DNA of 32,000 nt, from the NCBI RefSeq assembly GCF_000284115.1, contig NC_017080.1:60001-92000 (forward strand), written 5' to 3'. Shown here one piece after another: positions 2,118 to 21,220 of this stretch. How positions within the stretch are numbered: the first letter of the stretch is position 1; the number at the start of each line of letters is the position of its first letter. The translations under genes and the position numbers were made by a program. This stretch comes from Phycisphaera mikurensis NBRC 102666. Its GTDB lineage: Bacteria; Planctomycetota; Phycisphaerae; Phycisphaerales; Phycisphaeraceae. Below the pieces are notes generated by a model, which was not told where the DNA came from, did no database searches, and saw nothing but the letters and a program-made list of their open reading frames with translations.

Positions 2118-3374
2118 TCACGCGGCTCCGGATCCACTGGCAGCCGCCTGGTCGATCCTCATCGCATGCAGAAGCTTCTCGTCATGATGGAGTGGCGCCG
2201 CGCGTTTGAGAGCAATCTGAAGGAGCAGAACCCAGACAAGAACACCAAGCAGCGATTGCAGCGGACCCGCGACAATCCTCCCTGGCAGCCAGAGCGTGAT
2301 GCCCATCGCGATCCAGGGCATCCAGCAACGCAGGAGGCTCATCGAGGCTGGTCTTGTTCCAATCGCCTGCAGCAGCAGCAGCTGCAAGAGAAACGTCAGG
2401 AGAAGATTGTCGTATCCGCGGTGGTAGAAGCTGATCCGGGCGATCACACCAGCGATAGCGAAGAGCAAGAGCGGGGAAGCCGATCGATACCACCAGAGTA
2501 GCCAGCAGCCGAACAGCAAGCCGATCGCGGCGACGCCGTACGTCGCCCAAGGCTCCGGCAATTCGAGCCACGAGCGTGAAGCCTTAATCACACCTCCGGC
2601 CCGGTGAGTATAACTCGCGAGGTGGCTCGAAGCACCGACCTGCGATTCCCACGGTGCAACGCCAGTTAGTAGCCAATGCAATGCTCCCGCCCCCATCACC
2701 AAGGTGCAGGCAGTCGCGAAACCGACCCACCAGCTTCTTCGGCATAAGAGCACGAGCAGGAACGGTGCCGCCAGCGTGGGCTTCACCATTGCGAAGCCAA
2801 TGCAGATTCCTGCGATAGCGGCTTTCTGGCGGTGCAGCAAGATCATCGAAGCGACAAGCGCCCCCATCACCACCACCCCGTAGTTGGCCACCGCAAGCGT
2901 AGCGGGGTAGCTCACCATACCAAAGACAGACGCGAAGCCGAGGCAGCGCACCCCCCGGGGCCCGGCCCGAGTCAGCTTCGCTGCCCATAGGAGCACGAGC
3001 ACCCACGCTGCCAGCGACAACGCCATGAACCACCGATCCGCCACAACGACGTCCGGTGGCCAGTGGAGGGGCACGGCCAGCCCGTAGGCGAACGGAGGAT
3101 ACTCGCCGATCGGCCATGCTCGCTGGGGCAACCGAAGAGCTTCGAAAAAGCGAATCCCCTCTGTCTCGAGAAGGCCCATTGCGAATTCGTCATCGCGGTT
3201 TGCCACCGCTTGGTGCAACAAATTCGGATCGATCCCACGCAGCACGTAGTGCACCTGCTGCCATCGCAACGCGGCATCGCCACCTTGCCCTCGTTCCCAG
3301 CGCTGCGACGCCACCGTGGTGTAGGTCACACCGAGGAGCAGCAAGCAGACGGTGAAGAATCGGCTAACTTTCAT
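2118..3374 (-). CDS. GT-C fold glycosyltransferase, GT87/DUF2029-like (paralog 1 of 3)
   Basis: A 418-aa polytopic membrane protein. The central motif GFAMVKPTLAAPFLLVLLCRR resembles the (V/L)KPQL...RWR motifs of the two other DUF2029-like genes in this window. It lies in the lowest-GC part of the window. Confidence 0.75.
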   Translation of the reverse strand: MKVSRFFTVCLLLLGVTYTTVASQRWERGQGGDAALRWQQVHYVLRGIDPNLLHQAVANRDDEFAMGLLETEGIRFFEALRLPQRAWPIGEYPPFAYGLAVPLHWPPDVVVADRWFMALSLAAWVLVLLWAAKLTRAGPRGVRCLGFASVFGMVSYPATLAVANYGVVVMGALVASMILLHRQKAAIAGICIGFAMVKPTLAAPFLLVLLCRRSWWVGFATACTLVMGAGALHWLLTGVAPWESQVGASSHLASYTHRAGGVIKASRSWLELPEPWATYGVAAIGLLFGCWLLWWYRSASPLLLFAIAGVIARISFYHRGYDNLLLTFLLQLLLLQAIGTRPASMSLLRCWMPWIAMGITLWLPGRIVAGPLQSLLGVLVWVLLLQIALKRAAPLHHDEKLLHAMRIDQAAASGSGAA

Positions 3375-3798
3375 CCCGGGCCGCTATGACTCGACGGTTC
3401 GAACGCCGGTCGCTGCCGCTTCTCTCGGATCCAAGCTTCATCAGGCGTACTCCCATCGCTTCGGTGATCGCCTTCGAAGCGTCATCCAAGGCTGCGCCCC
3501 GAAAGCTACGATAGCTAGAAATCTTCTGGGGTGTTTCCGACCTTGCGGGTACCCCAGAATGACCGGTTGACACCTGACAAAGCTCATGAAAGGATGATCG
3601 GGACTCTGAGTTCGCCACGGTGAGGGACAAGAGCGGGAGCTGGACACCGATTTCTCATGAGCGTTGTCAGCCGGTGCGTGACCGGAGGAAACATCGCACC
3701 GGCAGATCGGACGCTTGGGCCGGTAGCCGAGGGGGCTGCGGGCGGAAGGGAAGGCACACCCGCTCTTTGCACACTGGCACGGCTCAGATCTTCGCTTG

Positions 3799-4330
3799 CT
3801 ATAAACAACTCCGCGGGCGATCTTTGCGCAGCTTTCTATCGCCGGGCGCATGCTGTCGGACTGCGCTGGCAGCGACCGGATCTTCCTTCGCGTGGTTCCG
3901 CCGCCACGCGGTCTCGGCGCCGACTCCTGTGCAGCGCCATCGACGCTTCCAGGCGTGCGCGGATGACGCCGCCACAGTGCGATCCATCTCGCACGGCAGA
4001 GCCATGTTGTCCTTCTTGGCCGCCTCCGTCTCGAGGGCGTCGGCGTGCGTCTGGAGCTTGCGGGAGGTCCCGACCCGCCGCTCGATCCACCCGCCAGCTT
4101 GCTAAATCTTGCAGGGAGCCTGGGTTCTGGCTGCTGAACTTCGGCCAGGCGAGCCGAGGCGGATGACGGACTCCGTGGAGGCCACGAAGGAACGGATCGT
4201 CTGCGACACCGAGTTGGAGTCGCCGCGGACAGCGGCGGGAGCTTTGGTCTGCACTTGGACCGACACCTCCTGGGTGTAGCGGCTGCTGGGCGACAGGCAC
4301 GCGAAGCCGGGTCGTGAGGAGCTTGGGTTA
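3799..4330 (-). pseudogene. Decayed coding remnant: one minus frame with coding-like GC3 interrupted by an in-frame TAG (4102-4104), probably with further frameshifts
   Basis: The frame reads ...SPSSRYTQEVSVQVQTKAPAAVRGDSNSVSQTIRSFVASTESVIRLGSPG...KI*QAGGWIERRVGTSRKLQTHADALETEAAKKDNMA... In the stretch counted, about 44 of 48 third positions are G/C against about 27 of 48 first positions, which is the pattern of genuine coding. There is no convincing start codon and no recognisable family. A coiled-coil-like segment is present (LQTHADALETEAAKK). Confidence 0.3.
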
Positions 4331-4421
4331 ACGTGCTCCCCAAGGAGCGGGATCGTGATCGCCTCAAGCCCCCGGCGGCGATGCCCGAGAAGCCGAAGCG
4401 GCAAGCCGGCGGCCCTGGCGC

Positions 4422-5999
4422 GTGCCCGCCGCACCGACTGGGCGAGACGCTCTGCTTCGCGACGCCATGCCCCCCCACGCCGCCACTGATCTGCGAGCCG
4501 AGGCGCGTGCTGGCGCCTTCTGGACAACGCTGCTCACAGTCGCCTCGCGCCTGCAGCAAACGGTGATGCAGCTCGTGCTGGCGTGGCTGCTCTCGCCGTC
4601 GGACTTCGGGCTGATCGCGATGGCCACGACGGTGATGGCGTTTGCCTGGTTCCTCCGGCATGCCGGCCTCGGGTCGATTCTCATCCAGCGTCAGAAAAGA
4701 TTCAGTCTTTGGGTAAGCCCGGCCACTGCGATGGTCTGCCTGTCTGGCGCGGCTGCGACGCTGCTGGCCCTGGCGGCCGCAGCTCCCGCGGCGCGGGCCT
4801 ATGGCCGCCCAGAGCTCGCTTTCATCATCGGCCTGTTTGCGCTCTCGGTGCTGCCCGAGGCTCTGCGCTCAATCGCCCAAGCGAAGCTTCGGGCCGACCT
4901 GCGGTTCCGGTCGCTCACCCAGCTGCAGCTTCTGAATCTCGCGCTGGTGTTCGCTTTGAGTGTCGGCCTGGCGTGGTTGAACTTCGGTGTCTATGCCCTA
5001 GTCATTCCCCGCGTGGCGGGCGGCTTCTTCGGCCTCGCAGCGGAGTGGGCGGTGGCACGCCCGGGGCTGCGACCCCGACGGATGCTGCGCCCGCGTCGCT
5101 GGAAGCACCTGCTCGGCAGCAGTGTGTGGATCACGCTCGCGGGCTTGAGCGTGCAGTTCATGAATCAAGGCGACTACGCGGTGCTCGGATTCTTCGAGGA
5201 TGAGGAGCTGGTGGGCCACTACTACTTCGCCTTCCTGCTCAGCTCGCAGGCGATGATGCTGGTGACCATCAACATCGGCGGGGTGCTCACGCCTGTGCTC
5301 GCGCGGATGCAGGACCGGCCCGCCGAGCAGGCCGACCGCTTCGACGAGGTCTGTCGGCTGATCGCCTTGGTCGGCTTCCCCGCCTGCTTCGGTTTGGCGC
5401 TCGTGGCCGACCCCCTCCTCCGCGTGTGCTTCGACCCCCGTTACCTGCCGGCGATACCTTTTCTCCAGTGGCTGTCGGTGGGCATGGCCTTCCGGCTTGT
5501 GGGGCACAACGGCTCGTTTCTGCTGCAGGCCAACGGCCGCTGGCGGCGCTACTTCCTGCTCAGCTTCGCCAACGCTGTGCTCTTCCTCGCGGCATGCTTG
5601 GTGGGCCACACCCTCGGCGGCGCCGCGGGTCTCACCGCGGGCGTCACGCTCTTTTACGCCGCCTTCGGCGTCTCCCAGCTCGCCTTCTCCGGCGCCCGCA
5701 GCGAGCGGCCGAAGGCCGCACGGCTTGCACGGATCTACACCGCCCCCCTGGCGGCCACCGCCCCGGCCTACGCCGGACTCGCTGCCATCGCCGGAGCTCT
5801 CGCGTGGCCGCCGCTCGTGGAGCTGCCGCTCCTGATCCTTGCCGGCATGGCTTCCACTGGACTCGTCCTGCGCTTGGCTTTCCCCGCGGCTTTCGCCGCT
5901 GTGCTCGAACAGCTACCGGGCGAGCGGTGGATCCAACGCCTGCCACGGTTCGCTGCCGGGCGTCAGATCGCCGACAATACAGCGGATCCTTCTACCTGA
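4422..5999 (+). CDS. wzx: Polysaccharide flippase, MOP/PST (Wzx-like) family
   Basis: A 525-aa protein with about 12-14 predicted TM segments. The composition is typical of PST-family lipopolysaccharide biosynthesis proteins (…VASRLQQTVMQLVLAWLLSPSDFGLIAMATTVMAF…, …YYFAFLLSSQAMMLV…). It is first in a co-directional run with the sulfotransferase, polymerase and GT4. An alternative ATG is at 4467. Confidence 0.82.
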   Translation: MPAAPTGRDALLRDAMPPHAATDLRAEARAGAFWTTLLTVASRLQQTVMQLVLAWLLSPSDFGLIAMATTVMAFAWFLRHAGLGSILIQRQKRFSLWVSPATAMVCLSGAAATLLALAAAAPAARAYGRPELAFIIGLFALSVLPEALRSIAQAKLRADLRFRSLTQLQLLNLALVFALSVGLAWLNFGVYALVIPRVAGGFFGLAAEWAVARPGLRPRRMLRPRRWKHLLGSSVWITLAGLSVQFMNQGDYAVLGFFEDEELVGHYYFAFLLSSQAMMLVTINIGGVLTPVLARMQDRPAEQADRFDEVCRLIALVGFPACFGLALVADPLLRVCFDPRYLPAIPFLQWLSVGMAFRLVGHNGSFLLQANGRWRRYFLLSFANAVLFLAACLVGHTLGGAAGLTAGVTLFYAAFGVSQLAFSGARSERPKAARLARIYTAPLAATAPAYAGLAAIAGALAWPPLVELPLLILAGMASTGLVLRLAFPAAFAAVLEQLPGERWIQRLPRFAAGRQIADNTADPST

Positions 6000-6075
6000 G
6001 CATCCACCCGCGCGGCCCTTAGACTCCTCGGCTCCCTTGCCTCTTGCCGGCGGCACCCGCTGACTTCCGCCTCCG

Positions 6076-6927
6076 ATGACCGCTCATCCCCTCCAGAAGC
6101 GCCCCGACTTCCTTCTCATCGGGGCCCAAAAGGCGGGCACCACGTCGCTGTTCTTCGACCTGCGGGCGCAGCCCAGCCTCTTCGTGCCCGACGGGAAAGA
6201 GCTGCGCGTACTTCTTGAGGACGAGGACGACCGGGTGCGTGCCCTGTACGAGCGCCACTTCGCCCAAGCGCCGGCGGGACAGCTCCGCGGCGACTGCTCC
6301 ACCGATTACGCCAAGCGGACGGAGCACCCCGGCGTGCCAGAGCGTGCCCGGCGGCTGCTGGGGGCCGACACCCGGCTGATCTACATGCTCCGCGATCCGG
6401 TCCAGCGGCTGTTGAGCCACCACCACCACGAGTGCAATCGCGGCGAGCCGCTCCCGCTCGCGGACGCGCTCGACGCTTGGCCCCGGCTCGTCGACAACTC
6501 GCGTTACGCCTTTCAAGCGGAAGCGTGGCTGGAGCATTTTTCCGCGGATCGGCTGCTCGTCGTGTTCTTCGAGGATTTCGTCCGCGACCGGGCGGCGGTC
6601 GTAGAGCGGTGCTGCACCTTCTTGGGGTCCGGCTTCTCGCCGGAGGCGGTTGGCGACGCGGTGCACAATCGCAGCAGCGGGAAGGCTCGGGCCGATGCCC
6701 CGGTCCAACGCCTGCGAAAGCTGCCGCTGTATCAAAGCGTGGTCCGGCCGCTCGTGCCGCTGGAGCTGCGGCTCAAGATCGTCCGGGCGTTGAGCCCCAA
6801 GGCCCCCAAGCGCGCATCAACCCTCGATCCGGTGCTACAAGAGCGGGTGAACGCCGCGCTCGCACCGGACCGGGAGCGGCTCGAGGCAATGTTGGGCGCC
6901 CCGGCACCTTGGGCGTCCGCACGTTGA
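6076..6927 (+). CDS. PAPS-dependent sulfotransferase
   Basis: The 5'-phosphosulfate-binding loop is PDFLLIGAQKAGTTSL. The 3'-phosphate-binding motif is RLIYMLRDPVQRLLSHH. At 283 aa it has the size typical of bacterial carbohydrate sulfotransferases. Confidence 0.85.
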   Translation: MTAHPLQKRPDFLLIGAQKAGTTSLFFDLRAQPSLFVPDGKELRVLLEDEDDRVRALYERHFAQAPAGQLRGDCSTDYAKRTEHPGVPERARRLLGADTRLIYMLRDPVQRLLSHHHHECNRGEPLPLADALDAWPRLVDNSRYAFQAEAWLEHFSADRLLVVFFEDFVRDRAAVVERCCTFLGSGFSPEAVGDAVHNRSSGKARADAPVQRLRKLPLYQSVVRPLVPLELRLKIVRALSPKAPKRASTLDPVLQERVNAALAPDRERLEAMLGAPAPWASAR

Positions 6928-6942
6928 AGGGGGAAATCCAGC

Positions 6943-8280
6943 ATGACCGGGCTCGGTGACAACAAAGCGTTCCTGTACCTCGAGGCCGTGAACGTCTGGG
7001 GCTTGAGCCTCGTGCTGCTGGCGGCCGCCACGTTCTTGGTCCTTCTTCCGGCACGCCTGCGCGTACAGGCCGGAGTTTTTTTGTCGGCGGCGTGGCTGCC
7101 GATGAATCTCTTCACCGACTTCCTGCAGCTGTTCGTCCCCGCCAAGGTCACGTTCTTCGCGGGTCCGGGTCTCATCCTCCTTGGGCTGGCCACAACCGCG
7201 TCGCACGTCTTCCAGCGGGGCCTGGTCTGGGTGCTGCCCCTCTTTGGGTTGGCCATGTCGGTCTTCGTCCTCCGCACCGCAGACGTGAGCTACGCACTTG
7301 TCACGCGGCTGGGCTGGAGCTTCGGAGCCCTCGCCTTCTCCGGCCTGGCCGTCTATACCGTCGACACCGGCCGGTACCGCGAGACGCTCGGCGCTTTCAC
7401 CTACGGCGCCGTGCTGCCGATCGGTCTTGCGGCCGCTGCACTCGTGTTCTCGCCGGGCAGCGGGTTCGGCCGGGGGGTGGGCCGCTTCTTCCCCTGGGGA
7501 GCCAACCCGAACCAGATTGGCCCACTCTTTGCGTCCACCGGTGTGCTGGCACTCACGTTGATGCTCGTGGAGAACCGTGCGGGCCGGCGGGGGTTGCTCG
7601 CCGCCATTCTGGTGGCCTGCACCGGTCTGACGCTGATGACCGGCAGCCGCTCCGCTCTGCTGATCCTCGCGGGTCCAGCGATGCTGATTGCGGCCGGCTA
7701 CCGCCGCTTTGTTTGGCTTGCGGTCATCGGTCTGGCTGGCCTCACCGCTTGGTGGTTGGTCGTCTACCGCAGCGGCGTGAACGTGGACCTCGCGCGGATC
7801 ACCGGCGGGGGCGACAGCGGGCGACTCGACATCGCTCGCATTTACTTCCGGCGGCTGATCGGCGAACGCCCGATGCTGGGTCTGCTCGAGGCTGGGGGCC
7901 TCAACAGCCAGCAGGAGAGTGGTGTGGGCACCCACTCGCACAACGTGTACGTCGAGTTCCTGTACCTCGGCGGGCTTCCGTTGCTGCTCGCTGCCACGGG
8001 GCTACTCGTGGGCATGGCGATCGTCAGCGTCCGGATGGTCCTCGCTGGCATCGCCACCCGCCACTCCCTGCTGCTGGGCCTCGGCGCGATTCCGCTGGTC
8101 ATGCTTGTGCACAACCTCACCACGATTATTGTGATCTACCCGACCAATTCCTGGTACGCCGTCGTCATCTTCAGCGCGGTGGCCCTCGGCCGCCTCAGCC
8201 AATACCGGCGGGAGGGCCACGCAGCGCCCCCCGCGGTCGCCCCCGGCGTCGCCGCTCCCGCTCCGGGGGTGGCGGTCTGA
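6943..8280 (+). CDS. O-antigen ligase/polymerase family membrane protein (Wzy-like)
   Basis: A 445-aa polytopic protein. The Wzy_C-type motifs LMTGSRSALL and THSHNVYVEFLYLGGLPLL are present. The stop TGA (8278-8280) overlaps the next ATG (8280-8282). Confidence 0.8.
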   Translation: MTGLGDNKAFLYLEAVNVWGLSLVLLAAATFLVLLPARLRVQAGVFLSAAWLPMNLFTDFLQLFVPAKVTFFAGPGLILLGLATTASHVFQRGLVWVLPLFGLAMSVFVLRTADVSYALVTRLGWSFGALAFSGLAVYTVDTGRYRETLGAFTYGAVLPIGLAAAALVFSPGSGFGRGVGRFFPWGANPNQIGPLFASTGVLALTLMLVENRAGRRGLLAAILVACTGLTLMTGSRSALLILAGPAMLIAAGYRRFVWLAVIGLAGLTAWWLVVYRSGVNVDLARITGGGDSGRLDIARIYFRRLIGERPMLGLLEAGGLNSQQESGVGTHSHNVYVEFLYLGGLPLLLAATGLLVGMAIVSVRMVLAGIATRHSLLLGLGAIPLVMLVHNLTTIIVIYPTNSWYAVVIFSAVALGRLSQYRREGHAAPPAVAPGVAAPAPGVAV

Positions 8281-14728: not shown

Positions 14729-14763
14729 ACGACGCCGCGACCTCTGGTCAACCTCTTCACGCG

Positions 14764-15321
14764 ATGGACAAGACCTTCTTCCGGCTAGAGCGAAGCCCCG
14801 CGACACCCGCCGGACGCAAGGCCGTGATCCTGAGGGTCGTGTGGGCCGCCGTTGAACGGACGCTGTTCCGCCTGCCGCTTCCCCGCTGGTTGCGGCTCCG
14901 ACGCCGGCTGCTGCGCCTCTTCGGCGCTTCCTTCGACGGGCACTGCTCCTCCAGAATCCGGGTGTGGTACCCCTGGAAGCTACGGATGGGCCGCCTCTCG
15001 ATGGCGGGCGATCGGGTGACCTTCTACAACCTCGCGCCCATCACCATCGGAGACTCCACCGTCCTGTCCCAAGACGCGTACCTGTGCGCCGGCACGCATG
15101 ACCACCTCGACCCCACCTTCCCGCTGGTGGCGGACCACCGCGCGGCCATCCGCATCGGGAATGGAGTCTGGGTGGCCGCAGGCGCCTTTGTGGGGCCGGG
15201 CGTGACCATCGGCGACAACGCCGTGGTGGCGGCCCGCAGCGTGGTGGTGAAGGACGTGCCGGCCGGGGCCATCGTCGGCGGGAACCCGACACGGATCATC
15301 GGACACCGGCCCGCGGGCTAG
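14764..15321 (+). CDS. Left-handed beta-helix (hexapeptide) acetyltransferase, WcaF-like (paralog of 11904..12515)
   Basis: MDKTFFRLERSPATPAGRKAVILRVVWAAVERTLFRL… aligns with the N-terminus of the other LbH enzyme. The hexapeptide region is IRIGNGVWVAAGAFVGPGVTIGDNAVVAARS. GC3 rises only after 14764. An alternative GTG at 14725 overlaps the GT4 stop (GTGA). Confidence 0.85.
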   Translation: MDKTFFRLERSPATPAGRKAVILRVVWAAVERTLFRLPLPRWLRLRRRLLRLFGASFDGHCSSRIRVWYPWKLRMGRLSMAGDRVTFYNLAPITIGDSTVLSQDAYLCAGTHDHLDPTFPLVADHRAAIRIGNGVWVAAGAFVGPGVTIGDNAVVAARSVVVKDVPAGAIVGGNPTRIIGHRPAG

Positions 15322-16274
15322 GAATCCGCGCCGGCGGTGGCATCGTCGGGCGGTGGCGAGGTGCCCTCGCCGTCTGCGAGCGCCCGAGCGTGCAGCAGGA
15401 TCATCTGCTCGTAGACGCGCAGCATAGATGCGTACGTCCAGCCGGCGCGGCCGTCGAAGACGCCGCGTTGCAGCACCAGCACGATGAGCCATCGAAGCGT
15501 CGGCCGCGCCGGCAGCCGCTGAAACAGCGACTTCACGGCGCGACGCCGGCGGACCCCATCGCTTGACAGCAGCGCAGCCAAGCCCGCGGCCTCGCCTTCC
15601 ACCGCCCGGCGTGCCTGCTCCGCCTCCCGCCGCGCGTACCCGTTGTGCTTCGCGAGCCACGCCTCCATGCCCTTGGCGAAGGCGTGGTGCAGATACGGCT
15701 CGCCGAGCCTCCCGATGCGGCCGCCGGGACGCTCCCGTTGCCCGTGCCCATGGTCGATGAAGCGCATGCGGTCGGCGTGGAAGAACCGCATCTGGAACAC
15801 CGGGTACCCGCCCGCATACCGCAGCCATTGCCTGTGGAGCATCAGCTTGTGGGCGACGTGCAGACCGTCAACTGTATCCGCATCGGGCGACGCGACGAAG
15901 CGACGTATCTCCTCGACGAGCGCGGGCGTGAACTCTTCGTCCGCATCGAGGTGGAAGACCCACTTGTGTCGCGGCTCCGCATGGTCTATCGCCCAATTGC
16001 GTTGCCGGCCAAACGATTCAAACGGATTCGTAAACACGCGTGCTCCCGTGGCTTCCGCGAGCGAGCGCGTTTCGTCGGTGGAGCCCGAATCGACAACGGC
16101 CACGTCGTCGCACCAGCGGCAGCTTGCCAGCGCCGCGGGAAGCGTCCCCGCCTCGTTGTGTGTCAGAAGGACCACCGACACCGGCACCACGCCCCGGTCG
16201 GGGTAGGTCCCCGCGGAGGAGTCGGGTGCCAGGGGCCTATGGAGCGACACGAGGGTCAGGATAATGACCGACAC
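15318..16274 (-). CDS. Glycosyltransferase family 2 (GT-A)
   Basis: VSVVLLTHNEAGTLPAALAS…VVDSGSTDET…FHLDADE carries the DxD-type motif. There is a C-terminal amphipathic/helical tail. The likely true start is a GTG at 16190 or 16187, giving (M)VPVSVVLL, rather than the GTG at 16274. Confidence 0.85.
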   Translation of the reverse strand: MSVIILTLVSLHRPLAPDSSAGTYPDRGVVPVSVVLLTHNEAGTLPAALASCRWCDDVAVVDSGSTDETRSLAEATGARVFTNPFESFGRQRNWAIDHAEPRHKWVFHLDADEEFTPALVEEIRRFVASPDADTVDGLHVAHKLMLHRQWLRYAGGYPVFQMRFFHADRMRFIDHGHGQRERPGGRIGRLGEPYLHHAFAKGMEAWLAKHNGYARREAEQARRAVEGEAAGLAALLSSDGVRRRRAVKSLFQRLPARPTLRWLIVLVLQRGVFDGRAGWTYASMLRVYEQMILLHARALADGEGTSPPPDDATAGADS

Positions 16275-16351
16275 GCGGTGTCACCGATCTGCCGGAGCGT
16301 TGATCGCCGGTCCTCGGGCGCCGGCACTCCGGCACGCGATAGCCTCCTGGC

Positions 16352-17203
16352 GTGCCCGCTGTCCGCCTGCCGATCTCCATCCTGATCCTCGTGAAGGACG
16401 AGGAGGAGCACCTACCGCTGCTGCTGGAGACTCTCGGCGGATTCGAAGACATCGTGGTGCTCGACTCGATGAGCACCGATGGGACAATTGAGATCGCCGA
16501 GGCCGCCGGATGCAGGGTGGTCCGCCGCCAGTTCGACACGTGGGCGGAGCACCAGAATTGGGCGATGGAGAACATCGAGTTTCGCCACCGGTGGGTCTTC
16601 TACCTCGACGCGGACGAGCGGATGACTGACGCCGTCCGCGGCGAGATTCATCAGATCGCGGCGTCCCCGCAGGAGCCGCCGCCGCACCGGGCGTACTACG
16701 TCGGGCGGGACAACCGCCTCTTCGGCCGCTCGCTCCGGCACGCCATGGGTGGCGGCGTGGTGATGCGCTTCTTCCAACCCGCGCACATCCGCTTTGCGCG
16801 GCGTGTGAACCCGCAGCCTGTTCTTGAGGGGGAGCCCGGCTACCTGCGGAGTCGCTTCATCCATCACCACTTTGCGCGTGGCTTCGCCCAGTGGTTCGAG
16901 AAGCACAACCGCTACGCGGGCTGGGAAGCGCAGGAGTGGATCGAGGCGGTGGACGCAACGCCGCTGCGGTGGAAGCCGCTTTTTGCACGCGACCGGAACA
17001 CGCGGCTACAGGCGATCAAGCGAGCGTCCTTCCACCTGCCCTTCCGCCCGCTGCTCAAGTTTCTGCACATGTACCTCTGGCGGCGAGGCTTCCTTGACGG
17101 AAGCCCGGGCTTCCACTGCTGCGTGCTGATGAGTATTTTTGAGTACATGATCGGGCTCCGGGTCAAGGAGATGCGACGCCGCAGCGCAGGAAAGCCGGTC
17201 TGA
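16352..17203 (+). CDS. Glycosyltransferase family 2 (GT-A), paralog of 15318..16274, divergently transcribed
   Basis: MPAVRLPISILILVKDEEEHLP…VLDSMSTDGT…FYLDADE. The C-terminal half is co-linear with the neighbour (…FAKGMEAWLAKHNGYARREA… versus …FARGFAQWFEKHNRYAGWEA…). Confidence 0.85.
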   Translation: MPAVRLPISILILVKDEEEHLPLLLETLGGFEDIVVLDSMSTDGTIEIAEAAGCRVVRRQFDTWAEHQNWAMENIEFRHRWVFYLDADERMTDAVRGEIHQIAASPQEPPPHRAYYVGRDNRLFGRSLRHAMGGGVVMRFFQPAHIRFARRVNPQPVLEGEPGYLRSRFIHHHFARGFAQWFEKHNRYAGWEAQEWIEAVDATPLRWKPLFARDRNTRLQAIKRASFHLPFRPLLKFLHMYLWRRGFLDGSPGFHCCVLMSIFEYMIGLRVKEMRRRSAGKPV

Positions 17204-17216
17204 CAGAGCGTTGCCG

Positions 17217-18899
17217 TCAGTCGAATGACGATCGCTCCAACGACAGACCTTCCCTCATAAGTCTGAGTGTCTCCAGCCGCCACGCGCTCTTGGGAGACCA
17301 CGACTCGTGCCCCCAGATCGCAACAGCGTCCGCTTCCTCAAGAGCGACTTCGAGTTGCAGGCGCCAGAAGTCGGTGCTGGCGCCTTTCGCGGTCCAGAGG
17401 AAGGCGATGACGGGCTTGCCAGCCTCCTTCGCCTCGTCCAGCATCGCTCGCGCTCGCGACACCCACAGTTCGTGGGTCGGCCTCGCACCAGCTCCCGTGT
17501 CCCACGCGTAGATCGCCGGGAAAATAAGGTCCACCGCGTCCACGAGCCGCTGTGCCTCGCGGTTGAGTTGCTGCTGCGCGGCGAACATGCCCGGATTGGA
17601 AGGTTCGGGATACCGCCTCGCCTGCACGTAAGTGTATTGCGGGAAGATGCCCCAGTAACCGAGGCGGACACCGGGACGTTCCTCGCGGAAGATCTCTAAG
17701 AGGCGAATCAGCCGATCGATCGCGCTAGTGCGTGCTGCACTGTCTTCCGTCAAGACGGGCCAGTGCTCTACATCGAGGCAGTACATCTTCGCCTCGGGAA
17801 GTCGGCGGATGCGTTCGCGTATCTCCGACTCCGGCGGCAAGGTGTCCCAATAACCCGCTTGGCCGCGACGGAAGCCGAGGTGTCCCGGGTAGATGACGTG
17901 GAGTCGCCTCACCGGCAATCCTTCCCAGTCCACTGGCTCATCGAACGCGGTCGCGTCGAAGATCCGATCCGCCCAAGCGGCTGAGTCTGCGGCCTTCGGT
18001 GTCAGGTCAGGATCAACCGCGGAGCTGATCGCATCCGGCGCGGAATCCTGAACCGGAGCGGCGCTCGCCGATCCTGCCGCAGGGAGATGAACCAGCGCCA
18101 CCTCTTCGGATCCGTTGCTCTGCATCGCGGCACCGGCGATGCGTGCTCCCGCGGCTCCCTCCGCCGAACGCTCCGGGTTCGGAAGAGGCACATCGTCTCC
18201 AGCGCCCGCTGTCGATGGTGCCGAACGGGGTCTTGAGCTCGGAGCAGGAGTCGGCAAAGCGCTCAGACCTCCGGACGAGGCATCGCCCGCCGCAGTTCCG
18301 CCACCGGTTGGTGCGGGCTGAGAGACTTGCGTGCCCGGGAGCAGCGCTCCCCTCAACGCACGGGGGGGAGATTGGACCGCTTTCGAAGATCTGCCCGCCA
18401 GCGACGGCGGGGCGTTCCAACGCGGCAAGGCGACGGAGGACCCGGCCACCAACTCCGCTGTGTCGATAGAAGCGAGATTGGGGCGGATCCGATCGAGAGA
18501 AGGAGGCGCCGGCAGCGGGCTCTCCGTTTCCGGCGAGGATTCGCGATCGGGCTCGACGGACGTCCGGACCCGGGGCACCGCGCGAACGTCCGATGCCCCA
18601 TCGGAGCTCTTCGTGGCTCGGGCCTTCGCAAACGGCCGCACCTCTTGCGTCGGGACGAGGGCGGGGACACGGAAGGCGGAGGGGGTGCCCGCCTCCGCTC
18701 GGGCAGAAGCTGGCGGGTGGAACCAGAGCGTCAAGCTGGCGCTGCTGCCCAGCGCGAAGGCCGTGAAGAGACAGACTGCGACATGGTGGTTCACGAGGAC
18801 ACTCCCGACGGCGAACCCTTCGCCATCGGCTCCGCCCGGCGCTCGCTCAAGGTGCATCGAGCGAACACGGCCGGCCTCATTCGGCGCTGTCAGCGTCAC
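17217..18899 (-). CDS. Membrane-anchored protein with a long Ser/Pro/Ala-rich linker and a C-terminal GH56 (hyaluronidase)-like domain
   Basis: There is a signal anchor (VAVCLFTAFALGSSASLTLWF) and a roughly 230-aa low-complexity linker. The C-terminal domain of about 250 aa carries, in order, CLDVEHWP, RLGYWGIFPQ, DLIFPAIY, KPVIAFLW and ADAVAIWGHE. The start is either the GTG at 18899 or the ATG at 18857. Confidence 0.72.
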   Translation of the reverse strand: MTLTAPNEAGRVRSMHLERAPGGADGEGFAVGSVLVNHHVAVCLFTAFALGSSASLTLWFHPPASARAEAGTPSAFRVPALVPTQEVRPFAKARATKSSDGASDVRAVPRVRTSVEPDRESSPETESPLPAPPSLDRIRPNLASIDTAELVAGSSVALPRWNAPPSLAGRSSKAVQSPPRALRGALLPGTQVSQPAPTGGGTAAGDASSGGLSALPTPAPSSRPRSAPSTAGAGDDVPLPNPERSAEGAAGARIAGAAMQSNGSEEVALVHLPAAGSASAAPVQDSAPDAISSAVDPDLTPKAADSAAWADRIFDATAFDEPVDWEGLPVRRLHVIYPGHLGFRRGQAGYWDTLPPESEIRERIRRLPEAKMYCLDVEHWPVLTEDSAARTSAIDRLIRLLEIFREERPGVRLGYWGIFPQYTYVQARRYPEPSNPGMFAAQQQLNREAQRLVDAVDLIFPAIYAWDTGAGARPTHELWVSRARAMLDEAKEAGKPVIAFLWTAKGASTDFWRLQLEVALEEADAVAIWGHESWSPKSAWRLETLRLMREGLSLERSSFD

Positions 18900-18933
18900 C
18901 GGTCCAGACGTCAGGACCAGTCACCTCCAGTGG

Positions 18934-19737
18934 TCAGTGATTCATCCAGGCTGCGGACCAGCCCCGAGACGCTTCTACAATTGCGTCCGCAGACGCGACC
19001 GGCAACGGCTCCGGCGCGAACACGATGACCCCTTCGAAGGCAGGCCACAACTCGGCGATCTCCCACGCCCAAGCTTCATCGGGAACAGGTCGGCCAGCCA
19101 GCTCGCCCCATTGCTTCGCTTGAGGGTGAAGCCAAGCCCACGTCACGAGATAAACCGGCTTGTCGAAGTTCGATTTCGCGATCCGCAACTGCTCAAGAAC
19201 GGCTCTGGCATGTGCATCTCGATCCGGCGTTAACGCATAGCCGTAGACGGAGGTGAAATCACACCAACCTTCCAGGCCGTCGTCACCCCGCCTCAACGCC
19301 AGCCAGTGCCGGACTTGCTCGGCGTCGGGACCCTCCGGCTCGCTCCAAGCAAACTCGCGGTAGAGCGACTCAGCCGCCGTGTAGAAGACGCCGATCCGCC
19401 GATCGGGACCGATCCGGCGGAGCGCCGGAAGCACCTCCCGCCAGTCCTTCGCTTCACCCCGCTCTTTGTTGTAGAACAAAGGCCCGGGAGGCAGATCCAA
19501 CATGCCCCGCTGACGCAGCCAGGCGTTTCCGCCGAAGCGGAAGCCCCGGTGCGGATCGAGCACGAGGTGGTCAGGAATCCAGACCATCGGGCGGGCGACC
19601 TCGGCGAGCGCGCGGTCCAGAGGCGGCGCTCCCGGCGGGGCCGCGATGTACACCAGAGGTCCGTCGGGCAACCCCGCCGCGGAAGCGGCACCTCCGCTGT
19701 CGAGCGACGACAACATGACCACGCAACCCCACAGCAT
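18934..19737 (-). CDS. Shorter paralog of the C-terminal domain of 17217..18899, with signature residues substituted
   Basis: By-eye co-linearity is FYNKERGE / RIGVFYTAA / CDFTSVYGY / KPVYLVTWAW / FEGVIVFAPE. The start is taken at ATG 19737 (MLWGCVVMLSSL…). The upstream part of track ORF 18934..19896 overlaps well-coding sequence of the divergent gene and has poor protein character. An alternative ATG is at 19716. Confidence 0.6.
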   Translation of the reverse strand: MLWGCVVMLSSLDSGGAASAAGLPDGPLVYIAAPPGAPPLDRALAEVARPMVWIPDHLVLDPHRGFRFGGNAWLRQRGMLDLPPGPLFYNKERGEAKDWREVLPALRRIGPDRRIGVFYTAAESLYREFAWSEPEGPDAEQVRHWLALRRGDDGLEGWCDFTSVYGYALTPDRDAHARAVLEQLRIAKSNFDKPVYLVTWAWLHPQAKQWGELAGRPVPDEAWAWEIAELWPAFEGVIVFAPEPLPVASADAIVEASRGWSAAWMNH

Positions 19738-21220
19738 CAGCCGCAGCTCACCCCCAACCGAGCGACACCGCCCGCTGAAGAACCAAGCTCGCGTGCTGTT
19801 GCGTCTCGCTCTGGTGCTCTTCATCGTCATTGCGGTCCTGCTTCTCGTGCAACGAGGGTTTCTGCGGGGTCTCGATCGTTCACTCGACCTCACCATGATC
19901 TATGCGGCGGCCAAGGCATGGCTCACGGGCCGCGATCCATACGCTTTTGCGCCCCTGTACGACCTGTATCTCGCTTCCGGAGGAACCGACAAGGCCCGCG
20001 ACGCCGATCAGTTCACCAGCCTCTACCCACCCACAACCTACGCGCTGCTCTCCCCCTTGGGACTGCTCTCTTGGCCAGCGGCGAAAGCCGCTTGGCTCGC
20101 CTTCAACGGCTTACTCATCGGGTTCTGCGTCGCCGCCATGCTCCTGTTGCGGGCCCCAGGACTCCGCAGAGGTTCTTCCCTGCAGCTCGGTCTTTTGGGG
20201 GTGACGCTGGTCTGGGCACCACTCCACACGGCTCTCTCGCTCGGCCAGCTCTCCGTCGCATGCACGGCGGCGGTTCTCCCGATTGCGGTCTTCGCGGGCA
20301 GGAAGCCCGGCACCGCCGTTGCGGTCATGGCAGGGAGCGCGTTGGGCGCGGCGGGCGCCTTGAAGCCTCAACTCCTATTCTTGTTGGGTCCTGCGATTTT
20401 GCTGACTCGATGGCGTGCCGCAGGTCCGATCGCAATTGTTGCGGCTTCGGTCGTTGCAGCGGTGGCGATCGTCCGGGTTTCAGGCAGTGCCCCGAACTGG
20501 TGGGACACTTGGATGCAGAACGTTGAAGCATTCACCAGCAGCAGCATCGGTCGTCCGGATCCTGCCAATCCGCAATTCCATGAGATGATGCACCTCGAAA
20601 CCATCGTCGGTTTGGTTTTGCCCGCCGCGGAAGGATCTTGGCGCACCCTCATCGCGACGGTGCTACCCGTCGGAATCTTCGTGCTCGCCGGGTCGGTGCT
20701 GCTGGTCCGTCACCGCCTGCAACCGCTTCCTGCCGAGGACGCTCGAGCTTGGCTGGCTCTCTCCGCCGTTCTTACGGTTCTCACCGGCTATCACCGCTCT
20801 TACGATGCAACGCTGTTGCTGGTCGCCCTTGTTGCATTGGCGGCGCGTGCGGCGGCGAGGCCGTCCTCCATCGTGACTTGGCTGATGGGCTTCGCGGCGG
20901 CGGCGTTTCTCGTACCCGCTCCGTCCGTCTTCGTCGCGATGACAAGACGAGGCCTGCTTCCTCCCGCTTTAGCCGAGGAGCCGCTGTGGCAGGCCACGGC
21001 GCTTCAAGCCCATAGCTGGGCGGCTCTCGCCTGGGCAGCATTGATACTTCGGGACCTCCTCAGCCCGCCTCAATGGAAAAGCAAGCCTGGGCGTGATGAT
21101 TCCCTAATGGTCGATCGCGATCCTGATGGACTGCTCCCCGAGTCAAGTCCTGGTGGTTCTCCATTGGGTCGCCTAACGCGTGGCGCGCCAGGCAGCCGGG
21201 AACGTCGGCGGCCTCGTTGA
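19715..21220 (+). CDS. GT-C fold glycosyltransferase, GT87/DUF2029-like (paralog 2 of 3)
   Basis: LDLTMIYAAAKAWLTGRDPYAFAPLYDLY…SLYPPTTYALLSPLGLLSWPAAKAAW… and GALKPQLLFLLGPAILLTRWR are co-linear with paralog 3. The start is taken at ATG 19715. The last roughly 55 codons (about 21060-21220) have poor GC3, so the native C-terminus is doubtful. Confidence 0.8.
   Translation: MTTQPHSISRSSPPTERHRPLKNQARVLLRLALVLFIVIAVLLLVQRGFLRGLDRSLDLTMIYAAAKAWLTGRDPYAFAPLYDLYLASGGTDKARDADQFTSLYPPTTYALLSPLGLLSWPAAKAAWLAFNGLLIGFCVAAMLLLRAPGLRRGSSLQLGLLGVTLVWAPLHTALSLGQLSVACTAAVLPIAVFAGRKPGTAVAVMAGSALGAAGALKPQLLFLLGPAILLTRWRAAGPIAIVAASVVAAVAIVRVSGSAPNWWDTWMQNVEAFTSSSIGRPDPANPQFHEMMHLETIVGLVLPAAEGSWRTLIATVLPVGIFVLAGSVLLVRHRLQPLPAEDARAWLALSAVLTVLTGYHRSYDATLLLVALVALAARAAARPSSIVTWLMGFAAAAFLVPAPSVFVAMTRRGLLPPALAEEPLWQATALQAHSWAALAWAALILRDLLSPPQWKSKPGRDDSLMVDRDPDGLLPESSPGGSPLGRLTRGAPGSRERRRPR

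Follow-up and report, generated by a model that had tools for sequence, protein, structure and literature searches.

A Wzx/Wzy-type glycan gene cluster of Phycisphaera mikurensis predicted to direct synthesis of an anionic, heavily substituted heteropolysaccharide

Genetic composition and arrangement of the locus

We analyzed a glycan gene cluster of approximately 19 kb (2118-21220) from the marine planctomycete Phycisphaera mikurensis, located in a stretch of 32,000 nucleotides (here referred to as the window). In total, 15 glycan genes were assigned to families (Table 1). HMM searches identified a Wzx flippase, a Wzy_C-family membrane protein, two GT4, two GT2 and two GT87 glycosyltransferases and, as modifying enzymes, a PAPS-type sulfotransferase, a pyruvyl transferase, two WcaF-like O-acetyltransferases (LbH1 and LbH2) and an MBOAT protein. 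The genes listed in a first-pass annotation of the region were found at the positions given there, and the family assignments support its description as a Wzx/Wzy-type locus. Almost all of its family calls stood; the Wzy_C and SGNH-like matches stayed below their cut-offs.

Table 1. Features of the locus and its surroundings (positions refer to the window)
Feature	Position	Strand	Assignment
69 aa and 256 aa proteins, no family	780-989, 964-1734	-	Called genes
GT87a, GT-C-fold membrane glycosyltransferase	2118-3374	-	Pfam GT87 68.8 bits (cut-off 25)
Non-coding gap, ~1 kb	3375-4421		No coding-frame signal
Decayed wzx N-terminal fragment	3743-4045	+	tblastn
Wzx (MOP-family) flippase	4422-5999	+	Polysacc_synt_3 179.6 bits
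PAPS-dependent carbohydrate-type sulfotransferase, predicted cytoplasmic	6076-6927	+	Sulfotransfer_1 53.7 bits, Sulfotransfer_3 39.2 bits
Wzy_C-family polytopic membrane protein	6943-8280	+	Wzy_C 24.2 bits (below cut-off 31.7)
GT4a glycosyltransferase	8280-9479	+	Glyco_trans_1_4 88.8 bits, Glycos_transf_1 83.3 bits
SGNH-like protein, putative periplasmic MBOAT partner	9437-10405	-	Lipase_GDSL_2 21.9 bits (below cut-off 32.9)
MBOAT membrane-bound O-acyltransferase	10452-11900	-	Pfam MBOAT 123.8 bits
LbH1, WcaF-like hexapeptide sugar O-acetyltransferase	11904-12461	-	NCBIfam WcaF family 171.6 bits (cut-off 192)
Polysaccharide pyruvyl transferase	12597-13568	+	PS_pyruv_trans 58.4 bits (cut-off 25.3)
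GT4b glycosyltransferase	13571-14728	+	Glyco_trans_1_4 81.3 bits, Glyco_transf_4 80 bits
LbH2, WcaF-like sugar O-acetyltransferase	14725-15321	+	NCBIfam WcaF family 164.9 bits (cut-off 192)
GT2a, soluble family-2 glycosyltransferase	15318-16274	-	Glycos_transf_2 62.4 bits
GT2b, soluble family-2 glycosyltransferase	16352-17203	+	Glycos_transf_2 25.6 bits (just over cut-off 23.3)
GH56-like (hyaluronidase-like) glycoside hydrolase, membrane-anchored	17217-18899	-	Family profile and fold
Divergent paralog of GH56-like domain	18934-19737	-	hhalign to GH56-like family profile
GT87b, GT-C-fold membrane glycosyltransferase	19715-21220	+	Pfam GT87 50.2 bits
PrlF/MazE-type antitoxin, right island edge	21427-21717	+	Pfam
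PIN toxin, right island edge	21717-22163	+	Pfam
Phd-type antitoxin, right island edge	22429-22761	-	Pfam
APS kinase	26763-27422	-	NCBIfam adenylyl-sulfate kinase 252.2 bits (cut-off 163)

The genes form eight transcription units of alternating orientation. Spacing between intact genes is tight, and no unrelated gene interrupts the series. Operon-like coupling was found for wzy-GT4a (TGATG at 8278-8282), pyruvyl transferase-GT4b (stop codon 13566-13568, followed after two bases by the GTG start of GT4b) and GT4b-LbH2 (GTGA overlap 14725-14728). The alternating short operons and the first two junctions agree with the earlier description; the third is additional.

The wzx gene starts at 4467 in the NCBI annotation. 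Its product also matched the NCBIfam MOP flippase (134.9 bits) and was 59%, 43% and 58% identical to its counterparts in the related loci L005, L007 and L172, respectively. The adjacent sulfotransferase was most similar to the solved structure 3rnl (E 1e-20), followed by heparan-sulfate 3-O-sulfotransferases (E 1e-8), and K19, G21, T22, T23, R106 and S114 were invariant in the family alignment.

The Wzy-like protein has about ten hydrophobic segments and a 57% identical ortholog in L172. An alignment of ten members built around it (A4; seven detected homologs and two positional equivalents) contained five that matched Wzy_C, with a best E of 8.7e-10. The protein is probably a Wzy polymerase. 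However, the Pfam family Wzy_C takes in ligases as well, and the score of the protein itself is low. It could instead be a ligase or O-oligosaccharyltransferase of the WaaL/PglL type, so that a single decorated oligosaccharide would be attached once to lipid A-core or surface proteins and left unpolymerised. A weak similarity of Wzx to the NCBIfam O-glycosylation flippase (108 bits, cut-off 720) and the lack of a chain-length regulator or export gene within 52 kb would fit such a function. We nevertheless regard it as unlikely: the gene forms a conserved triad with wzx, which is the usual position of wzy, ligases are normally encoded among core-oligosaccharide genes, and a tethered endo-type hydrolase together with a post-polymerisation MBOAT system better suits a polymer.

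GT87a, at the left end, is divergent from the other GT87 genes and has about seven hydrophobic segments. Its GC content of 0.618 is the minimum of the locus (GC3 0.72), and no homolog was found in the 125 related loci compared. The gap separating it from the divergent wzx gave no Rfam, promoter or terminator match. An ORF at 3441-4661 on the minus strand was rejected as a gene, its translation being Arg/Pro/Ser-rich junk with no coding signal. The decayed wzx fragment in this gap was detected with Wzx residues 29-126 (33% identity, E 3e-7).

In the SGNH-like protein (alternative start 10489) the Lipase_GDSL_2 match spans the C-terminal block alone, GNST and DTYH motifs were recognized by eye, and a single-sequence AlphaFold model had a pLDDT of 41.8, too low for use. 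Its role as the MBOAT partner is thus weakly supported. The MBOAT protein has a 65% identical ortholog in L089. LbH1 is about 185-203 aa long with homology reaching upstream to ~12521, and a 311-aa ORF was rejected as its gene; its best PDB matches were maltose/galactoside O-acetyltransferases and its identity in L005, L007 and L089 was 64-76%. LbH2 matched a maltose O-acetyltransferase in the PDB (E 2.5e-22). The pyruvyl transferase has a 60% identical ortholog in L089 and was not found in the other 124 related loci compared. GT2a carries no membrane segment and was 50-57% identical in L007 and L005. The best conserved gene of the locus is GT2b (77% in L089, ~45-56% in the 45 metagenome loci that span 8 kb or more), while GT87b orthologs were 48% identical in L089 and 36% in L007.

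Neither of the two GH-like proteins has a Pfam match of its own. By profile and fold, however, both are bacterial proteins distantly related to GH56 hyaluronidases, in line with the earlier call. The larger one consists of an N-terminal hydrophobic segment, an Ala/Pro/Ser-rich linker and, at the C terminus, a TIM-barrel domain that bears an LDVEHWP motif; its L089 counterpart shares the anchor-linker-domain layout. An exhaustive phmmer search returned 653 relatives; 32 of 61 aligned relatives matched Glyco_hydro_56 (best E 6.8e-9), and the family profile matched bee-venom hyaluronidase (E 1.2e-8). In a fold search with the predicted structure (pLDDT 88.8), GH56 hyaluronidases took all six top places among the PDB matches (E 2e-8 to 7e-6). 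The second protein aligned to the GH56-like family profile over 136 C-terminal columns (probability 94.8%, E 5e-8) and carries Asn-Lys-Glu in place of the family Asp-x-Glu. It is possibly non-catalytic; its L089 ortholog (44% identical) keeps the FYNKERG motif.

Compositional island and related loci

The locus is held by a compositional island of ~23 kb with a GC3 of 0.69-0.87 versus 0.93-0.99 in the backbone. The two leftmost genes without a family share the island-like composition (GC3 0.84), unlike the backbone, and had no Pfam match even at E<=1; in the 256-aa protein, the residues around 50-94 and 211-229 form hydrophobic segments. From 22857 onward GC3 returns to backbone level (0.93-0.98). 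Island status is supported by the GC3 contrast, the bordering toxin-antitoxin genes and the remnant of wzx, and the cluster was probably acquired horizontally. Given the atypical composition and the decayed fragment, parts of the island may be non-functional by now. Neither the island nor the conserved core described below, nor the APS kinase outside the coordinates covered, had been noticed in the first-pass annotation.

The order wzx, sulfotransferase, wzy-like is kept in the planctomycete contigs L005, L007 and L172 to L174. Wzy-like homologs adjoin the sulfotransferase in 8 planctomycete loci, and this neighbourhood was seen in L012, L015, L016, L017, L025, L026 and L029. Judged by gene order, the wzx-sulfotransferase-wzy core represents an arrangement conserved in planctomycetes. 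Unrelated contigs share the gene order, so the clustering is not due to chance, and the placement of the sulfotransferase speaks for sulfation as a feature of the unit on which flippase and polymerase act. That the enzyme instead modifies a glycolipid, a lipo-oligosaccharide or a small metabolite, leaving the polymer of the locus unsulfated, is very unlikely for the same reason, and also because the same glycan loci repeatedly contain further sulfotransferases and genes for PAPS synthesis and the next-best solved relatives act on a carbohydrate, heparan sulfate. Such a target would be in keeping with 3rnl, the nearest solved structure, which carries no substrate assignment, and with characterised bacterial sulfotransferases, which include Nod factor and mycobacterial glycolipid enzymes (cited in PMC8205485).

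In one uncultured organism of ~50% GC, the left and the right half of the locus are each represented by orthologs (42-81% identity) whose order and relative orientation match those of the P. mikurensis genes. This co-occurrence indicates that the locus genes travel and stay together, and we propose from the comparison that the island was acquired from, or is common to, a lower-GC lineage. In this organism, however, the halves lie on separate contigs, and the right one carries IS elements and frameshifts. The island might therefore be a mosaic serving two or more glycans, or be partly decaying, in which case wzx, sulfotransferase, wzy and GT4a, as a left module, would work on a different product from the right module, which runs from GT87b to MBOAT, and no polymer would bear all three substituents. 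The eight alternating units, the lower GC3 of the accessory genes (GT87a, both GH56-like genes, GT87b) compared to the core genes and the decayed wzx fragment as a trace of past rearrangement point in this direction, as does the finding that most related loci contain the GT2/LbH/GT4 core alone, with or without the sulfotransferase. We consider a mosaic improbable, since the halves co-occur at similar identity in the same distant organism, the intact genes are packed with nothing unrelated between, and a single flippase and a single polymerase candidate serve all transferases.

Missing components and possible sulfate donor supply

No initiating transferase, chain-length regulator, Wza/Wzc export or nucleotide-sugar gene was found within 52 kb, which extends the absences reported in the first-pass annotation. 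Additionally, Bac_transf, Poly_export and Wzz were not among the 25 most frequent Pfam families near 11 related planctomycete loci. O-antigen-type Wzx/Wzy clusters are routinely without initiating transferase, ligase and export genes, and the planctomycete host is a diderm. Likewise, the characterised Wzx/Wzy cluster for the sulfated exopolysaccharide synechan has its outer-membrane export gene encoded away from the cluster (PMC8205485). As split loci are ordinary, the non-canonical export route considered earlier is not needed, and the missing genes are probably encoded elsewhere in the genome.

Genes for donor supply are, however, not wholly missing from the window. An APS kinase, which makes PAPS, is encoded 5.5 kb to the right of the locus and may provide the sulfotransferase with its donor. 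Its GC3 of 0.977 corresponds to native composition, so it is perhaps not dedicated to the locus and may serve general sulfur metabolism. Among related loci, sulfotransferase homologs can have APS kinase or ATP-sulfurylase genes as neighbours; an APS kinase gene adjoins the homolog in 8 of the 80 genome loci. The pairing of sulfotransferase and PAPS-synthesis genes is regarded in PMC11641403 as a hallmark of sulfated polysaccharide clusters.

Predicted pathway

We consider it likely that the locus is the lineage-specific part of a Wzx/Wzy pathway for an anionic, heavily substituted surface heteropolysaccharide. The sulfate, pyruvate and O-acetyl groups already proposed in the first-pass annotation each have a predicted enzyme in the locus; the chemistry of the product is deduced from these families. 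A phosphoglycosyltransferase encoded elsewhere would prime the polyprenyl phosphate carrier, on which the soluble enzymes GT4a, GT4b, GT2a and GT2b would assemble a repeat unit of about five sugars at the cytoplasmic face. The sulfotransferase, the pyruvyl transferase and both WcaF-like acetyltransferases are assigned to the cytoplasm because they are without membrane segments, and would add sulfate from PAPS, a pyruvate ketal from PEP and O-acetyl groups from acetyl-CoA, respectively. The finished unit would be flipped by Wzx and polymerised by the Wzy_C-family protein.

For MBOAT, both GT87 enzymes and the anchored GH56-like protein, the predicted site of action is the periplasmic side. There, MBOAT and its SGNH-like partner would add further O-acetyl groups, the GT87 enzymes side sugars from polyprenyl-phosphate-sugar donors, and the tethered hydrolase would trim or release the chains. 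The split of acetylation into a cytoplasmic (LbH) and a periplasmic (MBOAT) route suggested before fits this topology. Unlinked genes would govern initiation, chain length and final destination. The polymer may end up ligated to a lipid anchor in the manner of an O-antigen, or be exported to form capsule or slime; we slightly favour the cell-attached, O-antigen-like fate.

The claim that no locus with this exact combination has been described holds for the literature searched, in which no description was found. In sequence space, the gene combination is rare but not unique, as the ~50% GC organism has both halves. The locus itself belongs to an already known type of cluster.

Gene content of the locus and pathway parts missing from it

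The annotation was based on the called genes of the window and of 10 kb on either side (52 kb in total). The host, Phycisphaera mikurensis, is a marine planctomycete of the class Phycisphaerae. The window has a GC content of ~70%, and long spurious ORFs are therefore common in it. HMM annotation with Pfam and NCBIfam bore out nearly all of the protein families named in the first-pass annotation. The ORF of 311 aa that had been assigned to LbH1, the first of two hexapeptide transferases, was wrong, the gene coding for ~185-203 aa. ORF 3441-4661(-), a junk translation with neither a frame signal nor a family match, was rejected as a gene.

Features of the glycan locus and its surroundings in window coordinates
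Feature	Position	Strand	Evidence
Hairpin-rich ~107-nt repeat, three tandem copies	415-737		77-95% identical
Partial fourth repeat copy, upstream of GT87a	1858-1925
GT87a	2118-3374	-	Pfam GT87 (PF09594) 68.8 bits, cut-off 25
wzx N-terminal copy	3743-4045	+	33% identical to Wzx residues 29-126, E 3e-7
Wzx	4422-5999	+	Polysacc_synt_3 179.6 bits, Polysacc_synt 76.9 bits
Sulfotransferase	6076-6927	+	53.7 bits
Wzy_C-family (Wzy-like) protein	6943-8280	+	24.2 bits, under 31.7 cut-off
GT4a	8280-9479	+	GT4 domains
SGNH-like protein	9437-10405	-	Lipase_GDSL_2 21.9 bits, under 32.9 cut-off
MBOAT	10452-11900	-	PF03062 123.8 bits
LbH1 hexapeptide transferase	11904-12461	-	Hexapep; WcaF family (NF007797) 171.6 bits, cut-off 192
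Pyruvyl transferase	12597-13568	+	PF04230 (PS_pyruv_trans) 58.4 vs 25.3 bits
GT4b	13571-14728	+	GT4 domains
LbH2 hexapeptide transferase	14725-15321	+	Hexapep; WcaF family (NF007797) 164.9 bits, cut-off 192
GT2a	15318-16274	-	62.4 bits
GT2b	16352-17203	+	25.6 bits, cut-off 23.3
GH56-like larger protein	17217-18899	-	Family profile and fold; family region 17217-18050
GH56-like smaller paralog	18934-19737	-	Profile comparison
GT87b	19715-21220	+	PF09594 50.2 bits, cut-off 25
PrlF/MazE antitoxin and PIN toxin	21427-22163	+
Lone Phd-type antitoxin	22429-22761	-
Fic_N fragment, 54 aa	23776-23940	-
UbiA-family gene	24182-25180	-	UbiA family prenyltransferase 282.5 bits, decaprenyl-phosphate phosphoribosyltransferase 130.8 bits, both below cut-off
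Third GT87	25265-26593	+	PF09594 64.8 bits, cut-off 25
APS kinase	26763-27422	-	252 bits, cut-off 163
tRNA-Lys(UUU)	28159-28232	+	71.6 bits
DUF4159 gene	28230-28922	-

The locus is composed of eight units of alternating orientation, separated by gaps of -43 to +135 bases with the exception of one gap of 1 kb. The coupling junctions reported before were found on reading the sequence, and an extra GTGA overlap is present at 14725-14728. Wzx, the Wzy-like protein, MBOAT and the GT87 proteins are polytopic. No hydrophobic segments were predicted in the sulfotransferase, the pyruvyl transferase, LbH1 and LbH2, nor in the two GT4 and two GT2 enzymes, as expected of cytoplasmic repeat-unit glycosyltransferases. 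These predictions back the earlier division of the decorating steps into cytoplasmic and periplasmic ones.

Wzx is a flippase of the MOP family with ~11 hydrophobic segments. The Wzy-like protein had no match in a PDB sequence search. Its family, Wzy_C, also includes the WaaL/PglL ligases, and according to a rival reading the protein is a ligase and not a polymerase. The position of its gene beside wzx is conserved, and 5 of the 10 members of the alignment built around it matched Wzy_C (best E 8.7e-10).

Neither an initiating phosphoglycosyltransferase (WbaP/Bac_transf or WecA/Glycos_transf_4) nor Wza, Wzc or Wzz (Poly_export OPX; Wzz/GNVR and kinase PCP) nor nucleotide-sugar genes were found among the called genes of the 52 kb. 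Their absence from the window, as noted in the first-pass annotation, thus extends 10 kb beyond it. In a Pfam scan of 127 ORFs neighbouring 11 planctomycete loci, the 25 families that occurred most often, in a listing of families found in more than one ORF, likewise included no Bac_transf, Poly_export or Wzz.

A non-canonical export route had been considered to account for these gaps, but it is not needed. Enterobacterial O-antigen clusters initiated by WecA carry wzx, wzy and glycosyltransferase genes, in many cases with an acetyltransferase gene as well, but none for an initiating transferase, a ligase or export. Their GC content is below that of the genome and they are horizontally exchanged. 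The locus resembles them in its wzx/wzy/glycosyltransferase/acetyltransferase make-up, in its low GC and in its lack of initiating and export genes, and this lack does not call for a new route. However, O-antigen clusters usually include nucleotide-sugar genes and occupy a fixed chromosomal site, and the sulfotransferase, MBOAT/SGNH, GT87 and GH56-like genes present here are atypical of them. The outer-membrane export gene of the synechan system is unlinked as well (PMC8205485), which likewise argues against the need for a new route.

Predicted decorating enzymes and a distant sister family of GH56

The sulfotransferase carries the PAPS-binding motifs GAQKAGTTSL and YMLRDPVQRLLS (5'-phosphosulfate and 3'-phosphate sites), and K19, G21, T22, T23, R106 and S114 were invariant across 22 homologs. 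The closest solved relatives in the PDB were 3rnl, followed by heparan-sulfate 3-O-sulfotransferases. The order wzx, sulfotransferase, Wzy-like gene was found again in L005 and L007, two related loci around the closest sulfotransferase homologs. These also carried homologs of LbH1 (64-70%), GT2a (50-57%), GT2b (50%), GT4 and GT87. Of the arguments that the sulfate would belong to the unit handled by the substrate-specific proteins Wzx and Wzy, this conserved placement between their genes is the strongest. The conserved order would follow if sulfate were already part of the repeat unit. In a rival reading the acceptor is something other than a polysaccharide.

With regard to PAPS supply, an APS kinase gene lies 5.5 kb to the right of the locus, outside the limits drawn in the first-pass annotation. 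Because its composition is native, like that of the backbone, it may have a part in general sulfur metabolism besides supplying the sulfotransferase. ATP sulfurylase was not found within the 52 kb and was present in 3 of the pooled neighbour ORFs of related loci. Three further loci (L012, L015 and L017, from Planctomycetota and unclassified MAGs) combined a sulfotransferase and a Wzy-like homolog with an APS kinase 59-65% identical to that of the window. A wzx homolog was not detected in these three at the thresholds used.

The match of the pyruvyl transferase covered profile positions 109-276 of 280 of PS_pyruv_trans, a family of the CsaB/WcaK/ExoV type. A PDB sequence search gave no relative of it. 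For LbH1 and LbH2 the WcaF family was the best NCBIfam match, just under the cut-off, and maltose/galactoside O-acetyltransferases were the closest structures (E 1e-13 and 2.5e-22). Both are therefore predicted to be sugar O-acetyltransferases and not amino-sugar N-acetyltransferases.

The SGNH-like protein, encoded next to the MBOAT gene, matched Lipase_GDSL_2 in a C-terminal block only. GNST and DTYH motifs were picked out by eye. Its AlphaFold model, made from the single sequence, had a pLDDT of 41.8, too low to be of use, and no homolog was detected in the related loci compared.

Enzymes of the GT87 family have a GT-C fold and depend on polyprenyl-phosphate sugars; the activity expected of them would be that of an alpha-1,2-mannosyltransferase with polyprenyl-phosphate-mannose as donor. 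The three copies found here have 7-11 hydrophobic segments. A synthase for a polyprenyl-phosphate-sugar donor was not identified in the locus. Such a role was not supported for GT2a and GT2b, as both lack membrane segments and, with GmaR and SunS as their PDB matches, are not GtrB/DPM1-like. The GT87 donor is thus unaccounted for within the locus.

The two proteins previously described as GH-like can be specified as GH56-like by family profile and fold. Neither had a sequence match in Pfam, NCBIfam or the PDB, and a word-indexed search of 5.8 billion proteins returned only the proteins themselves. An exhaustive phmmer search that took the last 277 residues of the larger protein as its query recovered 653 relatives at E<=0.001, which rules out that it is an orphan. 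Family members are mostly ~280-300 aa in length. Across 61 aligned relatives a DIEHWP block stood out, with E95 invariant and D93 nearly so; the window protein reads LDVEHWP. At the level of the motif this block resembles the catalytic Asp-x-Glu-x-Trp-Arg-Pro of GH56, and its equivalence to the catalytic pair is putative.

Pfam Glyco_hydro_56 (PF01630) matched 32 of the 61 relatives at E<=1 (best E 6.8e-9) and did not match the window protein. An alignment-based AlphaFold model of the larger protein reached a pLDDT of 88.8 and a pTM of 0.87. In a Foldseek search of the PDB with this model the six best matches were all GH56 enzymes (E 1.9e-8 to 7.3e-6, TM 0.52-0.63), the matches including the bee venom enzyme, wasp Ves v 2, human PH-20 and HYAL1. 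The family profile aligned with bee-venom hyaluronidase (1fcq_A) over its C-terminal 150 positions (E 1.2e-8), beginning after the DIEHWP block. The family is a distant sister family of GH56 and not a member by the Pfam definition. The window protein shares its TIM-barrel fold with bee venom Hya and with human HYAL1 and PH-20, hyaluronidases of GH56. However, it is only ~14-16% identical to them, its barrel is ~35 residues shorter after the putative catalytic block, and it is bacterial, membrane-tethered and encoded within a biosynthetic locus. A sizeable bacterial family related to animal hyaluronidases is thereby brought to light.

The larger protein consists of an N-terminal hydrophobic segment, an Ala/Pro/Ser-rich linker and the domain. 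Its ortholog on the metagenomic contig L089 has the same layout, and for this reason the long reading frame was preferred over the NCBI call of 324 aa. The anchor-linker layout points to a location outside the cytoplasm. The smaller protein was not paired with the larger one by BLASTP, but profile comparison did pair them: it matched the C-terminal half of the family profile with a probability of 94.8% (E 5e-8). Because Asn-Lys-Glu replaces Asp-x-Glu, a substitution kept in its ortholog, the smaller paralog may be non-catalytic.

Composition of the island and related loci

Backbone genes on either side, including the UbiA gene, the third GT87 and the APS kinase, had GC3 values of 0.93-0.99. 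GC3 was 0.69-0.92 in every gene of a stretch that begins a little to the left of the window and ends with the Phd antitoxin (~22.8 kb). This island contains the locus, whose genes ranged from 0.69 to 0.87 with the lowest values in GT87a, the two GH56-like genes and GT87b. In total GC, the locus (66.6%) differed from its flanks (74.0%).

Within the 1-kb gap (3375-4421), ~680 bases upstream of the intact gene, lies a decayed copy of the N-terminal part of wzx. The Wzx proteins of L005 and L007 matched it too, and it has the appearance of a scar left by past recombination or rearrangement. No RNA element, promoter or terminator was found in the gap.

At the left edge of the island the ~107-nt repeats flank small unannotated genes, and further copies are located left of the window (L001 13675-13843). 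Each repeat contains two GC-rich palindromes and folds at -51 to -61 kcal/mol. On the right the locus is followed by the toxin-antitoxin genes, a methyltransferase and the Fic_N fragment. Toxin-antitoxin and Fic genes between an island and native genes are typical island-edge genes.

Beyond this edge the UbiA-family gene and the third GT87 form a divergent pair of native composition. By analogy with mycobacterial arabinan synthesis the pair suggests a putative lipid-linked pentose donor and its transferase. Overlapping antisense genes in 24182-26593 were rejected, the two being adjacent divergent genes with over-extended ORFs (777 and 774 aa). Such an antisense double match is a caution on ORF over-extension in DNA of 75% GC. 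A weak match to the archaeal sR53 snoRNA inside the UbiA gene (24242-24302(+), 27.7 bits vs 49) was taken as chance. Further to the right of the locus follow the APS kinase, tRNA-Lys, VKOR and YebC. The tRNA-Lys(UUU) is the sole well-supported tRNA and shares three bases with the called 3' end of the opposite-strand DUF4159 gene. ARAGORN calls of tRNA-Lys/tRNA-Arg at 8651-8736(-) and 24124-24194(-) had no Rfam support; they were taken as chance matches and are not supported as integration sites.

Scanning species-representative genomes with the sulfotransferase alignment gave 80 loci, the best of which belonged mostly to Phycisphaerae and other Planctomycetota. A core of sulfotransferase, GT4, LbH and GT2 was shared by 6-7 of them, an APS kinase was adjacent in 8 and MBOAT was present in 3. 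None of the 80 contained the pyruvyl transferase, the SGNH-like gene, GT87a or either GH56-like gene. The 127 neighbour ORFs included extra sulfotransferases, GDP-mannose dehydratase, RmlD-type, ATP sulfurylase and GDSL proteins.

The closest GH56-like relative is located on L089, a contig of 52% GC from an uncultured organism. Orthologs on this contig were: GT87b (48%), the small paralog (44%), the GH56-like domain (42%), GT2b (77%), a GT2a-like gene, LbH2 (55%), GT4b (50%), the pyruvyl transferase (60%), LbH1 (76%, split) and MBOAT (65%). Their order and relative orientation were the same as in the window locus. A contig of 49% GC from the same sequencing run carried Wzx (58%), the sulfotransferase (57%) and the Wzy-like gene (57%), again in the same order. 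When metagenomes were scanned with GT2b, the GT2/LbH/GT4 core was common and the accessory set was otherwise absent.

Two insertion sequences (rve-type and DDE_Tnp_1) lie among the glycosyltransferase genes of L089 (7789-9002 and 10622-11767), and the orthologs of LbH1 (14694-15291) and of the GH56-like gene (5492-6774) are apparently split by frameshifts. These disruptions could be errors of the assembly, or the locus could be decaying in that organism.

The claim that no locus with this exact combination had been described holds for the literature searched, in which neither this locus nor another with the same gene set was found described, but not for sequences (L089 and the 49% GC contig). 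Since two contigs of one sequencing run hold orthologs of both parts of the locus, the combination appears to be rare and not unique. Its occurrence in hosts of ~50% and ~73% GC, together with the composition of the island, points to horizontal transfer. In a rival reading the island would be a mosaic serving more than one glycan.

Proposed pathway and comparison with known systems

The best-supported reading of the gene content is that the locus would encode those steps of a Wzx/Wzy-dependent route to an anionic heteropolysaccharide that are specific to the lineage. The repeat unit would be assembled, sulfated, pyruvylated and O-acetylated in the cytoplasm, and the finished unit would then be flipped and polymerised. 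Outside the inner membrane MBOAT would add O-acetyl groups, GT87 enzymes would glycosylate the polymer and the GH56-like enzyme would trim it. As to the fate of the polymer, O-antigen-like attachment is slightly favoured over release as capsule or slime.

In colanic acid (wca) and succinoglycan (exo) synthesis a WcaF-family acetyltransferase and PS_pyruv_trans decorate the repeat unit before flipping, as proposed here. Succinoglycan loci also encode dedicated glycanases. However, the wca/exo loci contain a priming transferase and Wza/Wzb/Wzc or ExoP/ExoT/ExoQ, which the window locus lacks, and they have neither sulfation nor GT-C enzymes. In the O-acetylation systems of alginate (AlgI/AlgJ/AlgF/AlgX) and peptidoglycan (PatA/PatB), MBOAT and a periplasmic partner of the SGNH type acetylate the polymer after inner-membrane export. 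The partner found here is only weakly SGNH-like, and the alginate and peptidoglycan systems are parts of synthase-dependent or cell-wall pathways and not of Wzx/Wzy loci.

Synechan is a sulfated exopolysaccharide made by a Wzx/Wzy-dependent route in Synechocystis sp. PCC 6803. Its xss cluster combines Wzx, Wzy, glycosyltransferases and a sulfotransferase, as the window locus does, and sulfation is assumed to take place on the lipid-linked unit in the cytoplasm (PMC8205485). Unlike the window locus it has its own priming transferase, co-polymerase and regulators (PMC8205485). In the excerpted text of that paper the word 'pyruvyl' does not occur, and the gene list includes no MBOAT, GT-C or glycoside hydrolase (PMC8205485). 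The host belongs to a different phylum. Sulfotransferase-bearing clusters of Wzx/Wzy or ABC type have been reported from cyanobacteria (PMC8205485), Vibrio (PMC11641403) and Cobetia (PMC11766843).

Within the PVC superphylum, excerpts of a report on Pontiella sulfatireligans place a sulfotransferase amid GT2 and GT4 genes and a TuaB/Wzx-type flippase, as here, and link this cluster to a measured sulfated exopolymer that is putatively glycosaminoglycan (GAG)-like (PMC7356697). In the same excerpts that cluster differs in having transaminase, dehydratase and GtrA-like genes and in a polymer whose sulfation is mostly N-linked, and no pyruvyl transferase, MBOAT, GT87 or GH56-like gene is reported in them (PMC7356697).

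A more specific reading, which we regard as improbable, is that Phycisphaerae and maybe other Planctomycetota make a sulfated GAG-like surface polymer containing N-acetylhexosamine by the Wzx/Wzy route, with sulfation in the repeat unit and with a dedicated membrane-tethered enzyme for remodelling, drawn from a hitherto unrecognised bacterial sister family of the animal GH56 hyaluronidases. The substrate-assisted mechanism of GH56 requires an acetamido sugar. Sulfated GAG-like material has been reported from planctomycete-rich anammox granules, its producer being unknown according to PMC7356697. If this reading were true, the locus type would offer a genetic handle on that material.

Two features are worth noting: the conserved planctomycete core of wzx, sulfotransferase and wzy, and the presence within the locus of a bacterial family that is a sister to the GH56 hyaluronidases. 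For the engineering of anionic polysaccharides, candidate enzymes are the sulfotransferase, the pyruvyl transferase and the GH56-like hydrolase. The general principle is unchanged; what is added is a further phylum for a known pathway type, together with decorations of an unusual combination.

Animals, algae and cyanobacteria are familiar sources of sulfated polysaccharides. To our knowledge, genetically defined bacterial examples are few beyond the cyanobacteria (synechan), these being some marine Vibrio and Cobetia capsules and Pontiella. As for planctomycetes, the usual view is of degraders of sulfated algal glycans and not of producers. The conserved wzx-sulfotransferase-wzy arrangement suggests that members of the Phycisphaerae also make sulfated surface glycans, and such production would bear on life on algal surfaces, on the binding of metals and cations and on interactions with phages and grazers.
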